From: Escherichia coli
GTDB taxonomy: Bacteria; Pseudomonadota; Gammaproteobacteria; Enterobacterales; Enterobacteriaceae
Strand: one strand, 5' to 3'
Assembly (NCBI RefSeq): GCF_003018115.1
Contig: NZ_CP027457.1
Length of the DNA stretch: 64,000 nucleotides
Both the position numbers and the translations under genes were made by a program. Positions 55,417 to 58,383 of the stretch are shown in pieces; positions within the stretch are counted from its first letter, which is position 1, and every line of letters starts with the position of its first letter. Below the pieces are notes generated by a model. That model was not told the DNA's origin and made no database searches. It saw only the letters and a list, made by a program, of their open reading frames with translations.

Positions 55417-56835
55417 GCACAAAATTTTATACCCTGCTGACGGATATTGGCGCGGCGAAACTTGCCAGCGCCGCCGCGCTCGGTGTGCCGCTAAAAATTA
55501 CCCATATGGCGGTGGGCGATGGCGGCGGAGCATTGCCGACGCCGGACGCAAAGCAGACGGCACTGGTAAATGAGAAACGCCGGGCTGCGCTGAATATGCT
55601 CTATATCGACCCGCAGAACAGCAGCCAGATTATTGCTGAACAGGTGATCCCTGAAAATGAGGGTGGTTGGTGGATACGTGAAGTGGGTCTGTTTGATGAG
55701 TCCGGGGCATTGATTGCCGTAGGCAACTGCCCGGAAAGCTATAAGCCGCAACTGGCTGAAGGCAGCGGGCGCACCCAGACCGTGCGCATGGTGCTGATTA
55801 CCAGCAGCACGGACAATATCACCCTGAAAATCGACCCTGCCGTCGTGCTGGCAACCCGCAAGTATGTGGATGACAAGGTACTGGAGCTGAAGGTGTTCGT
55901 GGATGATAAGATGGCAAAACATCTTGCCGCACCGGACCCGCATTCACAGTATGCACCCAAAGAAAGCCCGACATTGACCGGAACACCCAAAGCGCCAACG
56001 CCAGCGGAGGGGAATAACACCACGCAGATTGCGACCACCGCGTTTGTTCAGGCCGCTATTACTGCTCTGATTAACGGTGCGCCAGCCACGCTGGACACAC
56101 TGAAAGAAATTGCCGCAGCCATTAACAATGACCCGAAATTCAGTACCACCATTAACAATGCGCTGGCACTAAAAGCACCGCTGTCGAGTCCGGCACTCAC
56201 CGGAACGCCAACAGCACCTACTGCGGCACAGTCGGTCAACAATACACAGATTGCCACTACAGCTTTTGTGAAATCAGCGATTGCGGCAATGGTGGGTTCT
56301 GCACCTGCTGCACTGGATACACTGAACGAACTGGCGGCGGCGCTGGGGAATGACCCGAACTTTGCCACGACAATGTTGAATGCGCTGTCAGGCAAACAAC
56401 CGCTGGACAATACGCTGACTAATTTGAGTGGAAAGGATGTTGCTGGTCTTCTCGCATACCTTGGTTTGGGAGAAGCGGCAAAACGGGATGTGGGGACAGG
56501 GGAAAATCAGATACCGGACATGGCCTCTTTTGCCAGTGGTGATGGATGGATGAAATTACCCAACGGGAAAATCCTGCAATATGGTCGTGGTGCGGTTACG
56601 CCGACATTATCGACGCAAAACAATGAGAATTACATTCAGCATTCCTTTCCCCAAAAAAGCGGACTGCGCCATGCTTACTCATTCTGGTGATGGCGGTGCG
56701 CCTTTAGGCGCTGGGCGAGGGTTCGTGATGACTGCAGAAGGCCCAACGTTAACCGGCTTTAATTCTGCTTACAGAACGTCATCAACCAGCGACACGGTAT
56801 CGATGAATTACAGTTGGTGGGCTGTTGGTGAGTAA
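55413..56835 (+). CDS. Tail fibre protein (gpH-like): constant N-terminal part plus current variable C-terminal segment; reading frame breaks near 56650 in an A-run
   Basis: ORF 55413..56690 with repeated ATTAFV...DTLxExAAAxxNDPxF motifs; continues in the +1 frame (ORF 56581..56835, ...FSIPFPKKADCAMLTHSGDGGAPLGAG...) with conserved fibre C-terminal character. Confidence 0.7.
56449..56475. other. Left recombination site (gix/cix-like) of the invertible tail-fibre segment
   Basis: ttggtttgggagaag in tail fibre gene is repeated in inverted orientation at ~58357-58371; the 26-bp context resembles gix (aaacc..ggttttggataa). Confidence 0.6.
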
Positions 56836-56855
56836 TTTTATTCAGGGTGATTTAT

Positions 56856-57299
56856 ATGAACGAATATGTTTATAGCGCAAGGCATAATGCTTTTTTCCCT
56901 GTGGATATGATTGATAAATATAAATCAGAGGGATGGGATTTATCAGACGCTAAGGAAGTAAATCAAAATATTATCAGTGAGTTTATGGCTGAACCGCCAC
57001 AAGGAAAAATCCGTATTGCCGGAGATGATGGGCTGCCTGCGTGGGCAGATATTCCTCCACCCACGCATGAAGAGCTTATTGAAATTACTGAATCAGAAAG
57101 ACAGCTACTAATTAACCAGGCCAACGAATACATGAACAGTAAGCAATGGCCCGGTAAAGCCGCTATTGGTCGTCTGAAAGGTGAGGAACTGGCGCAATAT
57201 AATTTGTGGCTGGATTATCTGGACGCACTGGAGCTGATCGATACTTCCGGTGCGCCAGATATTGAATGGCCTACGCCTCCGGCAGTTCAGGCCAGATGA
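56856..57299 (+). CDS. Tail fibre assembly chaperone (gpG/Tfa-like), currently expressed orientation
   Basis: Start MNEYVYSARHNAFFPVD...; C-terminal LIDTSGAPDIEWPTPP chaperone signature. Confidence 0.75.
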   Translation: MNEYVYSARHNAFFPVDMIDKYKSEGWDLSDAKEVNQNIISEFMAEPPQGKIRIAGDDGLPAWADIPPPTHEELIEITESERQLLINQANEYMNSKQWPGKAAIGRLKGEELAQYNLWLDYLDALELIDTSGAPDIEWPTPPAVQAR

Positions 57300-57873
57300 C
57301 ATCCGGCGCTGTGCTGGTATCTGTTGCCGTCACCGCGTCAATGTAATCCAGCACAGCGTTAAGGCGGGTTGTTTCTGCCTGCGTCAGCTTCCGTCCGGCC
57401 TGTAATTTCAGTTGAATCAGACTGATGGAGGCCATTGCAGTATCAATCAGCGACTGGCGCTGTGCTTCTGCTGCATCTACTGCTGCGCCGTGCTGTGCCT
57501 TGGTATCTGTCACCCATTTCTCACCATTCCATTCATCGTATGGCGTTAACGGGGCGATAGTGGTTGTATTTTCAGGATAATCACCCGGAGCTGTGATTTC
57601 TTTCGATTCTCCTGTTTCGATGCTATAGACGATTTCACCGCGATGATCTGGCACATATTCCCATGAATTTAAATTCACAGAACGACAGATTGCATAACCA
57701 ACCTTATGTATGCCTGGTGCATCAAGACAGGAACATGCCGGAATACCGACACCAACAGCAAGATATTCAGTTGACGTGGAAATATATTCCCGTGTTTCAC
57801 CATCGTAGTTATAAACGGTAACATCCCCTGCCTTTGTTGCAATAAGGTCACTATTTAATATTGCTTTATGCAT
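57271..57873 (-). CDS. Alternative tail fibre assembly chaperone (Tfa'), inverted orientation
   Basis: 200-aa ORF on opposite strand ending ...IDAVTATDTSTAPDVIWPELPEA, same C-terminal signature as the plus-strand Tfa. Confidence 0.7.
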   Translation of the reverse strand: MHKAILNSDLIATKAGDVTVYNYDGETREYISTSTEYLAVGVGIPACSCLDAPGIHKVGYAICRSVNLNSWEYVPDHRGEIVYSIETGESKEITAPGDYPENTTTIAPLTPYDEWNGEKWVTDTKAQHGAAVDAAEAQRQSLIDTAMASISLIQLKLQAGRKLTQAETTRLNAVLDYIDAVTATDTSTAPDVIWPELPEA

Positions 57874-58356
57874 CAGGCTGCCCTCACGATATAATTAAAT
57901 GCAATATTACGCGGACGCGTTTCTGAGGCTGCGGCACCTAAACCAGCCACTGATTGTTTATATGTTTTAAAGGTTCCATAATCCGGTGCTGGTAATCCGG
58001 CATCGTTTGTGTTTCCTCTTTTGATAATGTCAGTGCCACTATTTACCCAGCTTTCATCAAAATAGAAATTAATAGTTGCATCAGTCACAATCGTGGATCT
58101 TGACGGTAATCCATGAGCATGATCCTCCGTTGCATATCCCTGAATACTTAAAATAGAGCGACCTGTATCAATCCCCGCCCGTCATCCCAGCCACGAATAA
58201 ACTCACCACGTAAATCAGGCAATTTATTTGTCGGGTAAACTTTTGCCAGTTCCGGGTATTCTTCAGCAGAAAAAGCTGCACCATTGCATTTCAGCCAGCC
58301 TGTAGGCGGAGTGGCTGAAGGCCACGGAACAGGGACACCAACAGGTAATGCAGAGC
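57873..58356 (-). pseudogene. Alternative tail fibre variable C-terminal segment (Sv'-like), silent orientation; frame broken in a G/C-run as assembled
   Basis: Minus-strand ORFs 58148..58411 (...LPVGVPVPWPSATPPTGWLKCNGAAFSAEEYPELAKVY...LPDLRGEFIRGWDDGRG, tail-collar motif) and 57873..58088 are contiguous once one base is restored near 58172-58180. Confidence 0.65.
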
Positions 58357-58383
58357 CTTCTCCCAAACCAACGTTTATGAAAA
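58357..58383. other. Right recombination site (gix/cix-like) of the invertible segment
   Basis: cttctcccaaaccaacgtttatg is the inverted copy of the site inside the tail fibre gene; lies just upstream of the invertase. Confidence 0.6.

Follow-up and report, generated by a model that had tools for sequence, protein, structure and literature searches.

A probable Pin-type host-range switch in the tail fibre gene of a P2-like Escherichia coli prophage

Genes, invertase and recombination sites of the segment

The window, a 64-kb stretch of Escherichia coli DNA, contains an apparently complete P2-type tail operon in the order V-W-J-I-H ... FI-FII-E-E'-T. The matching protein families were assigned from PHROG matches and from Pfam searches on identical relatives, which gave Phage_base_V, GPW_gp25, Baseplate_J, Tail_P2_I and Phage_tail_fib for the tail module, together with Phage_sheath, Phage_tube, Phage_TAC_7, Phage_P2_GpE and PhageMin_Tail. 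Based on a comparison of gene order with P2, the region described here presumably stands where P2 has the end of H and gene G. The open reading frame that starts at position 55413 encodes a tail fibre of the P2 gpH type. Its constant N-terminal part (55413..56460, plus strand, residues 1 to ~349) lies outside the invertible segment and matches PHROG tail fibre and tail protein families with E values down to 4e-170; in relatives, this part carries the Pfam domain Phage_tail_fib.

Beyond the constant part, two fibre C-termini and two tail fibre assembly (Tfa) genes are arranged in opposite orientations, with a Caudo_TAP chaperone behind each tip. The first pair is gp53-like and lies on the plus strand. 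Its variable C-terminus, Sv (56476..56835), is now fused to H and contains Gp53-like_C in intact relatives. It is paired with a chaperone of 147 amino acids, Tfa147 (56856..57299, plus strand; PHROG 188, E = 6e-63), which has Caudo_TAP in relatives and shares 52% amino acid identity with TfaP of the e14 element across the C-terminal 112 residues. The second pair is StfE/TfaE-like and lies on the minus strand. It consists of the currently silent StfE-type alternative C-terminus, Sv' (57873..58356), which has a Collar domain in intact relatives, and a 200-residue TfaE-type chaperone, Tfa200 (57271..57873, minus strand; PHROG 105, E = 8e-96), which contains Caudo_TAP_N and Caudo_TAP and is 92% identical to e14 TfaE. 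Depending on the orientation, H in relatives is a protein of 473 residues (Phage_tail_fib plus Gp53-like_C) or 515 residues (Phage_tail_fib plus Collar). The reading frames, Pfam domains and PHROG matches all agree with the two alternative tips and two opposed chaperones that an earlier note on this DNA had described.

The segment is bounded by a 15-bp core, TTGGTTTGGGAGAAG, whose two exact copies in the window lie at 56461-56475 (plus strand) and 58357-58371 (minus strand). When up to two mismatches were permitted, 0.06 matches were expected, and two or more matches occurred in 0 of 100 shuffles. The same tolerance gave just two core matches in the 64 kb, and a multi-site shufflon was rejected on this basis. 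In a repeat search, the core pair extends to inverted arms of 27 nt (56449-56475 and 58357-58383) separated by a spacer of 1881 nt. The sites themselves are two 26-bp imperfect palindromes in inverted orientation with matching central dinucleotides: a pixL-like left site at 56449..56474 (plus strand, TTCTCGCATACC TT GGTTTGGGAGAA, core 56461-56475) and a right site, pixR, at 58358..58383 (plus strand, TTCTCCCAAACC AA CGTTTATGAAAA, core 58357-58371). The left site falls inside the tail fibre gene, where the core codes for L-G-L-G-E from residue 350 (nucleotide 56460), and 55 nt separate the right site from the invertase ATG downstream of it. Inverted repeats around a ~1.9-kb segment, placed in these two positions, had been proposed in the earlier note, and the coordinates given there are the outer ends of the 26-bp sites. 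All 26 bases of the right site agree with pixR, which lies upstream of pinE in the e14 element of K-12. The left site departs from e14 pixL at three bases; these all fall in the outer half-site, and no difference occurs in the inner half-site or the central TT.

The core is coding at both ends of the segment and encodes LGLGE, which raises the question of whether the repeats simply reflect a coding motif that is conserved where fibre domains meet, with the two orientations generated by homologous recombination. This origin is barely credible: the similarity reaches past the motif into the 26-bp dyad, the right site enters non-coding DNA while still matching all 26 bases of e14 pixR, and a dedicated invertase adjoins the segment. 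Efficient RecA recombination, moreover, needs more identity than the 15 bp available here.

That invertase is encoded by an intact open reading frame at 58439..59005 (plus strand) and is a Pin/Gin-family serine DNA invertase of 188 residues (PHROG 125, DNA invertase, E = 2e-100). It shares 85% amino acid identity with PinE and 74% with Gin of phage Mu, and a phmmer search against the PDB matched residues 1-183 to the crystal-structure chains of Gin (E = 6e-92). The N-terminal catalytic domain is assigned to Pfam Resolvase and the C-terminal domain to HTH_7, and the catalytic residues Ser9 and Arg42 are present. All residues specific to invertases that depend on Fis and an enhancer were found, namely K46, K47 and R50 in helix B and Q150, R153 and L154 in helix-1 of the DNA-binding domain; the numbering is one lower than for the published counterparts in Hin (K47, K/R48, K/R51, Q151, R154 and L155; PMC3798978). 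In NCBIfam, the invertase had sub-threshold matches and the Tfa proteins had none; PADLOC gave no match for the invertase, and a simple promoter scan from pixR to the invertase ATG found no convincing promoter. The sites had previously been described as gix-like and the enzyme as Pin/Gin-type. The class of the enzyme is upheld, and both sites and enzyme are closest to pix/Pin of e14 rather than to gix/Gin of Mu (26 of 26 bases in the right site; 85% versus 74% identity for the invertase).

A putative Fis-dependent recombinational enhancer is located at the 5' end of the invertase gene (58460..58523, plus strand). This stretch is strongly conserved when aligned with the 5' parts of the pinE and gin coding sequences. 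It contains Fis-like G-N13-C cores at 58460-58474 and 58509-58523, which are 49 bp apart in the register used, and between them the elements GATTTG and TAATG, counterparts of the ATTTA and TAATG segments of the hin enhancer (PMC3798978). Pairs of Fis-like G-N13-C cores spaced at exactly 48 bp were absent from the window and from e14 in a scan, and the single pair in Mu was unconvincing. By homology, the stretch would act as an enhancer and inversion would depend on Fis.

Both orientations in the prophage lineage

To compare the orientation of the segment across relatives, public assemblies were aligned with the window. The segment is reversed in two loci of GCA_051443285.1 (L004 and L006) and in one metagenome locus (L008, ERZ28606162), in each case between flanks that are 100% identical to those of the window. 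In all three, the identical match covers 3.5 kb on the left. On the right it extends for up to 4.6 kb in L004 and L006, and in L008 it is in two pieces of 0.5 and 0.9 kb, with a small deletion in the invertase region. In all three loci, the alignments switch within 56458-56475 and 58357-58371, which places the breakpoints in the 15-bp cores. Two further loci, L005 and L009, have the same orientation as the window. The segment also occurs by itself: L012 and L013 are stand-alone contigs of 1912 nt whose ends fall exactly at the 15-bp cores, the L013 contig being present in at least 20 samples, and in the isolate drafts L014 and L015 the segment forms a contig of 1875 nt. In principle, such contigs could stem from two prophage copies per genome rather than from a mixed population. 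Among complete E. coli genomes, both junctions are common, with H joined to the gp53-type tip in 389 genomes and to the StfE-type tip in 482. Both orientations therefore exist in the prophage lineage, as seen in public assemblies at the level of the lineage rather than of the source strain. The observations that the earlier note had expected to tell against a switch were a single orientation in every read and repeats mismatched at the crossover; what is found instead is both orientations, with the crossover within the repeats.

Taken together, we estimate a probability of about 0.9 that the 1.9-kb segment is a host-range tail fibre switch of a P2-like (Fels-2/pro483-type) E. coli prophage, operated by a Pin-type serine invertase on two pix sites. 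Following the Hin/Gin/Pin paradigm, invertase dimers would occupy the two 26-bp sites (56449-56474 and 58358-58383) and the host protein Fis would bind the enhancer near the start of the invertase gene, so that the dimers and Fis form an invertasome. Both sites would then be cut at the central TT/AA, rotated by 180° and religated, flipping the 1.9-kb segment. As read from the sequence, residues 1 to ~349 of H continue into the gp53-like tip in the orientation of the window, with co-transcription of the 147-residue Tfa. In the flipped orientation, H ends in the StfE-type collar tip, co-transcribed with the 200-residue TfaE-type chaperone.

One-base frameshifts in the two tips

As the earlier note had observed, both variable tips are frame-broken in the window. 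In Sv, alignment reveals an extra A in the run at 56617-56620 (A4, versus A3 in the relatives L001 and L002), and the H reading frame stops at 56690; repair of A4 to A3 gives a full-length H of 473 residues that ends in WWAVGE. In Sv', a C is missing from the run at 58173-58176 (C4, versus C5 in the closest relatives), and insertion of one C gives a full-length frame of 166 residues that is 98% identical to e14 StfE. In tail fibre cassettes of this type both frames are expected to be open; here, Sv is shifted by +1 and Sv' by −1. Neither the truncated 425-residue H nor an 87-residue reading frame specific to this orientation and C4 had a match in exact-sequence look-ups. Neither run is a plausible site of programmed frameshifting or slippage: A4 and C4 are too short and lie in no known stimulatory context.

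The two lesions have different distributions. The A4 allele is also found in L004, L006, L008, L009 and L011-L015, with support from at least nine independent contigs that include isolate drafts, Logan unitigs and metagenomes. Because it is present in every near-identical relative, A4 is real and inherited. In contrast, the near-identical relatives all have C5, and C4 is private to the window among them. Elsewhere, C4 is found in unrelated E. coli (07-4299, ET210 and sequencing run ERR3550085; records CP027462.1 and CP100987.1) and in several K-12 derivative assemblies. The exact 61-nt sequence with C4 occurs in four K-12 derivative assemblies, other K-12 records match it at 98.4% with a one-base gap, and the reference e14 has C5. 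At least one of the two tips, and perhaps each of them, is disrupted by a single-base frameshift.

Both indels lie in homopolymer runs, and if the frame breaks were errors of sequencing or assembly, the real phage would have two intact tips and a true two-specificity switch. The C4 allele fits such an account, as it is absent from every near-identical relative and its presence in four K-12 derivative assemblies, when the reference e14 has C5, looks like a recurrent error. However, the repetition of A4 in at least nine independent contigs shows that it is not particular to the assembly of the window. The window is otherwise clean, with no internal indel over 32.6 kb relative to strain F9792 and zero differences from GCA_051443285.1 across prophage flanks that exceed 8 kb; sloppy assembly as a general property of the window is unlikely given these comparisons and, for A4, is ruled out as the source of both frameshifts by the relatives that carry it. 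At most the C4 half of this account can be true, and as a whole it is very improbable. There is also a slim chance that the recurrent loss from C5 to C4 is biological and reflects a mutational hot spot or repeated selection for silencing of the StfE-type tip. Silencing would then be layered over the inversion switch, possibly owing to a cost of the H/StfP-StfE chimera or to a host-side effect on porin receptors of the sort claimed for e14 StfE2.

Frameshifts in both tips, the fixation of A4 throughout the near-identical lineage and the annotation of three genes as frameshifted at a related locus in CP027462.1 would also suit a fossil switch, in which a past inversion is preserved in a decaying prophage, selection on the fibre is relaxed and the orientation is frozen in the strain. 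This is unlikely. The invertase frame and both sites are intact, the right site being identical to that of the active e14 system, and the remaining prophage genes in the window are of the expected length. In addition, both orientations occur among prophages with more than 8 kb of identical flanks, so that inversion postdates the A4 mutation and is very recent. The inherited +1 frameshift in the gp53-type tip means that, in this lineage, the switch alternates a truncated fibre with no more than one functional fibre. If C4 is real, neither orientation gives an intact fibre in the window, and the switch may operate here without phenotypic output because both tips are frame-broken. Two receptor specificities, as predicted in the earlier note, are accordingly not expected for the lineage as sequenced, in which the gp53-type tip has an inherited frameshift and the StfE-type tip is broken in the window.

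Relation to known switches and significance

The segment is of a well-known and already described kind rather than a new kind of system, with precedents in the e14 P segment and Pin, the Mu G segment and Gin, the P1 C segment and Cin, and switches of P2-like prophages shown experimentally in enteropathogenic E. coli (EPEC). The logic of the Mu G segment is the same: the S constant part is followed by Sv-U and U'-Sv', and the invertase lies just outside the segment. The Mu segment differs in its 3-kb length and in the sequence and central dinucleotide of gix (TTATCCAAAACC TC GGTTTACAGGAA), and a blastp comparison of the Mu fibre and chaperone proteins with the proteins of the window gave no match at E <= 1e-3. 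The P1 C segment and Cin follow the same logic as Mu G. Hin and hix, which control flagellar phase variation in Salmonella, share the enzyme family, the 26-bp site design and, as compared with the published Hin positions, the invertase-specific residues. In that system, however, a promoter is flipped, whereas alternative coding ends are exchanged here.

The closest known system is the P segment with PinE in e14 of E. coli K-12 (Plasterk and van de Putte 1985; Mehta et al. 2004; both as cited in PMC4272514). It has the same layout of constant part, pixL, tip and Tfa, Tfa' and tip', pixR and invertase, and over the right half of the segment the DNA identity is 94%, in line with the values given above for pixR, PinE, TfaE and StfE. 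The left half differs, as StfP-C and TfaP are found in e14 in place of the gp53-like tip and Tfa147. The setting differs as well: e14 is a lambdoid remnant with an StfP constant part, whereas the constant part here is P2 gpH in the P2-type tail operon.

The resemblance of the Sv' tip to e14 StfE, and of the sites to pix, brings to mind that the e14 StfP-StfE chimera (StfE2, formed after PinQ-driven inversion) is reported to block adsorption of T2 (Kirigo et al. 2025, PMC12529663), and the flipped H-StfE chimera could likewise benefit the cell, perhaps by keeping other phages from adsorbing. Such a takeover by the host is highly improbable. The fibre gene stands in a complete P2-type late operon beside baseplate and sheath genes, for which virion assembly is the simpler role; furthermore, the N-terminal part is gpH rather than StfP, and the StfE-type tip is frameshifted in the window.

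For such switches, inversion has been observed directly: the tail fibre loci of e14 and of P2-like prophages phase-vary by inversion in clonal E. coli cultures, as determined by sequencing and PCR (Goldberg et al. 2014, PMC4272514). The P2-like prophages of EPEC E2348/69 likewise have an invertase and alternative fibre C-termini. One of those loci is a multi-site shufflon, in contrast to the simple two-site switch here. The sequenced phages pro483 and Cartapus, both P2-type, have the same arrangement; in pro483, whose annotation includes a DNA invertase and two tail fibre assembly genes, the match covers 80% of the region and has 87.5% identity. Matches to at least 80% of the region, with identities of up to 96.4%, occur in about 100 complete E. 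coli genomes, and the exact prophage with 100% identical flanks was found in draft and metagenome contigs only, with none among the complete genomes. The earlier suggestion of a Mu G/P1 C architecture grafted onto a P2 tail module is therefore borne out in architecture and placement, but the graft is not a new one.

The significance of the locus beyond annotation is slight, as it represents a textbook Din-family tail fibre switch whose close relatives occur widely among E. coli genomes and sequenced phages. Invertible segments of this kind break short-read assemblies into orphan contigs of 1.9 kb and draw frameshift calls, and they can mislead automated annotation; annotation of the fibre gene in this prophage should state that it depends on the orientation of the segment. 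With the lineage-wide frameshift in the gp53-type tip, a complete fibre would be made from one orientation only and, in the source strain, possibly from neither.

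Recombination sites and genes of the switch

The 64-kb window contains exactly two copies of the 15-mer TTGGTTTGGGAGAAG, at 56461-56475 on the plus strand and at 58357-58371 on the minus strand. With up to two mismatches allowed, 0.06 matches to this core are expected, and two matches were seen in 0 of 100 shuffles. The inverted-repeat arms are 27 nt long (56449-56475 and 58357-58383) and were ranked by a repeat finder as the top inverted repeat of the region. The left 26-bp site (56449-56474) reads TTCTCGCATACC-TT-GGTTTGGGAGAA and the right one (58358-58383) reads TTCTCCCAAACC-AA-CGTTTATGAAAA. 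Both are imperfect dyads about the central dinucleotide, and TT and AA are complementary, as expected for inversely oriented sites. Their outer ends coincide exactly with the bounds (56449-58383) proposed in an earlier note for an invertible tail-fibre segment.

The left core lies within H, a P2 gpH-type tail fibre gene that starts at 55413, where it encodes L-G-L-G-E from residue 350. In agreement with the earlier note, two fibre C-termini and two Tfa chaperones are found inside the segment in opposite orientations: a gp53-like C-terminus (Sv, 56476-56835) and a 147-aa chaperone (Tfa147, 56856-57299) on the plus strand, and a 200-aa TfaE-type chaperone (Tfa200, 57271-57873) and a StfE-type collar C-terminus (Sv', 57873-58356) on the minus strand. 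The proposed placement in a P2-type tail module is likewise observed, with baseplate genes V, W, J and I upstream and sheath FI, tube FII, E, E' and the tape-measure gene downstream (Pfam on identical relatives; PHROGs).

A 188-aa serine recombinase gene (58439-59005) starts 55 nt past the right site. Its product matches Gin crystal-structure sequences at E = 6e-92 and is 85% identical to PinE and 74% identical to Gin, which bears out its description as a Pin/Gin-type invertase. Ser9 and Arg42 are present, and K46, K47, R50, Q150, R153 and L154 correspond to Hin positions 47, 48, 51, 151, 154 and 155, at which residues specific to Fis/enhancer-dependent invertases have been reported (PMC3798978). 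By analogy with Hin, Gin and Pin, invertase dimers at the two sites would assemble into an invertasome with Fis bound at an enhancer within the 5' part of the invertase gene, and cleavage at the central TT/AA would be followed by rotation and religation. A putative enhancer, conserved with pinE and gin, lies at 58460-58523. Downstream of the invertase stop and ahead of the sheath gene, TGTGTGAATAACGACACA (59054-59071) fits the TGT-N12-ACA dyad of Ogr-dependent P2 late promoters. Based on the position of this putative dyad, insertion of the invertase cassette appears to have left the FI promoter intact.

The layout is shared with e14 of K-12 (stfP, tfaP, tfaE, stfE, pinE). The right site is identical to e14 pixR at 26 of 26 positions, and the left site has the inner half-site and central TT in common with pixL. 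In contrast, the gix sites and fibre proteins of Mu are far more distant. Thus, the sites are inverted as first described, but they are pix-like rather than gix-like. Over the right half of the segment (57195-58383), DNA identity with e14 is 94%, and the StfE and TfaE proteins share 98% and 92%. The segment is a mosaic, with one half of the e14 type and the other of the gp53 type. The switch is not new in kind, as its design is shared with e14 P/Pin, Mu G/Gin and P1 C/Cin. The cassette is common in P2-type prophages, with 101 complete E. coli genomes matching the region over 80% or more of its length, and it is also found, with an annotated DNA invertase, in phages pro483 and Cartapus.

Orientation of the segment in related prophages

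Inversion was judged from public assemblies, used as a proxy for the source strain, and contigs with the same prophage were recovered through exact-protein look-ups. Two loci of GCA_051443285.1 (L004 and L006) and a metagenome scaffold (L008) are 100% identical to the window along 3.5 kb of the left flank and as much as 4.6 kb of the right flank; the right-flank match of L008 is shorter and in pieces, with a small deletion in its invertase region. The 1.9-kb segment is flipped in all three, and the alignments switch inside 56458-56475 and 58357-58371, which places the crossover at the predicted repeat cores. In two further relatives (L005 and L009), in contrast, the segment is oriented as in the window, and the same prophage is therefore present in both orientations among public assemblies. 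Both ends of two 1912-nt contigs (L012 and L013) coincide precisely with the outer edges of the 15-bp cores, and the L013 contig is found in at least 20 samples. In the isolate drafts L014 and L015, the segment is an orphan 1875-nt contig. At 15 bp, the core falls short of the k-mer lengths used in assembly. Contig ends at precisely this point are most simply explained by the presence of both junctions among the underlying reads. The junction of H with the gp53-type tip is covered by 389 complete E. coli genomes, and that with the StfE-type tip (a constructed query) by 482. For e14 and P2-like prophage fibre loci, experiments on clonal cultures of E. coli have demonstrated inversion (PMC4272514).

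Other features of the window

A 593-aa ORF (42357-44135, plus strand) lies in a low-GC island of the prophage (36% GC), with the replication gene on one side and the capsid/terminase genes on the other. The PADLOC NsnA model (E = 8e-31) and PD-T4-2_A both match it, and it is annotated as DUF262 or GmrSD in relatives. The gene is probably anti-phage defence cargo at a P2 hot spot. The match to the prophage-free strain F9792 stops at 32668. The stretch at this point (32663-32720, minus strand) is the reverse complement of the 3' end of a tmRNA (ssrA; Rfam tmRNA match of 35.5 bits, below threshold) and adjoins the prophage integrase gene (32793-33839). Together, these features suggest that the far end of the ypjA island is an attachment site of the ssrA type.

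One of the ten substitutions between the window and F9792 sequences, at 23008, falls in an alpha-amylase-family ORF (21992-24244, minus strand), with G in the former and A in the latter. In the window, the 750-aa frame is open; the F9792 annotation has a pseudogene with an internal stop. At the margin of a low-GC island, ARAGORN assigns 24804-24879 (plus strand) to tRNA-Met (anticodon CAT). As F9792 carries a tRNA-Ile annotation for this CAT-anticodon gene, it is probably a lysidine-modified tRNA of the ileX/ileY type.

Frame breaks and fibre output

As had been noted earlier, both variable fibre parts are frame-broken. Relative to the closest complete genomes (96% identity), only two indels are observed in 3.7 kb: an extra A in GACGC-AAAA-CAATG (A4 at 56617-56620; A3 in relatives) and a lost C in CAAT-CCCC-GCCCG (C4 at 58173-58176; C5 in relatives). 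A single-base repair reopens each frame; without the extra A, H runs to 473 aa and ends in the gp53-like domain, and addition of the C gives a 166-aa StfE-type tip. In the relatives L001 and L002, RefSeq annotates the fibre gene (1514-2935 in both) as two separate features, an 'incomplete phage tail protein' and a 'gp53-like domain-containing protein'. The frame is unbroken and open for 473 codons in both, and thus the split at the constant/variable junction is an artefact of annotation.

A4 is found in all near-identical relatives (L004, L006, L008, L009 and L011-L015) and in 0 of the 414 complete genomes that carry the stretch. Its presence in every near-identical relative, from sources as varied as isolate drafts, Logan unitigs and metagenomes, indicates that it is a genuine mutation fixed in the prophage lineage. 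The near-identical relatives all have C5 at the second position. Seven complete-genome records, 07-4299, ET210 and four K-12 derivatives among them, contain exact copies of the 61-nt C4 sequence, and C4 is also seen in one Logan contig. Other K-12 records match this sequence only if a one-base gap is introduced, and e14 of the K-12 reference has C5. The window assembly is otherwise clean, with zero internal indels relative to F9792 over 32.6 kb and no difference besides C4 from GCA_051443285.1 over more than 10 kb. For C4, which recurs at one homopolymer in StfE-type tips, private mutation and sequence error at an error-prone site have near even odds. In the homologous cassette of 07-4299 (NZ_CP027462.1, 1018256-1025316), three genes are annotated as frameshifted (gp53-like tip, tfaE and collar fibre); either indels gather in invertible segments or assemblies are poorly polished there.

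Read from the sequence, one orientation joins H to the gp53-type tip with Tfa147, and the other joins H to the StfE-type tip with Tfa200. The e14 StfE chimera has been claimed to block T2 adsorption (PMC12529663), which for the present locus is no more than a lead. With A4, H is cut to 425 aa in the window orientation, and a complete fibre (515 aa) is encoded in the sister prophages only by the inverted state. If C4 is real, the prophage of the source strain would be without a complete fibre in either state.
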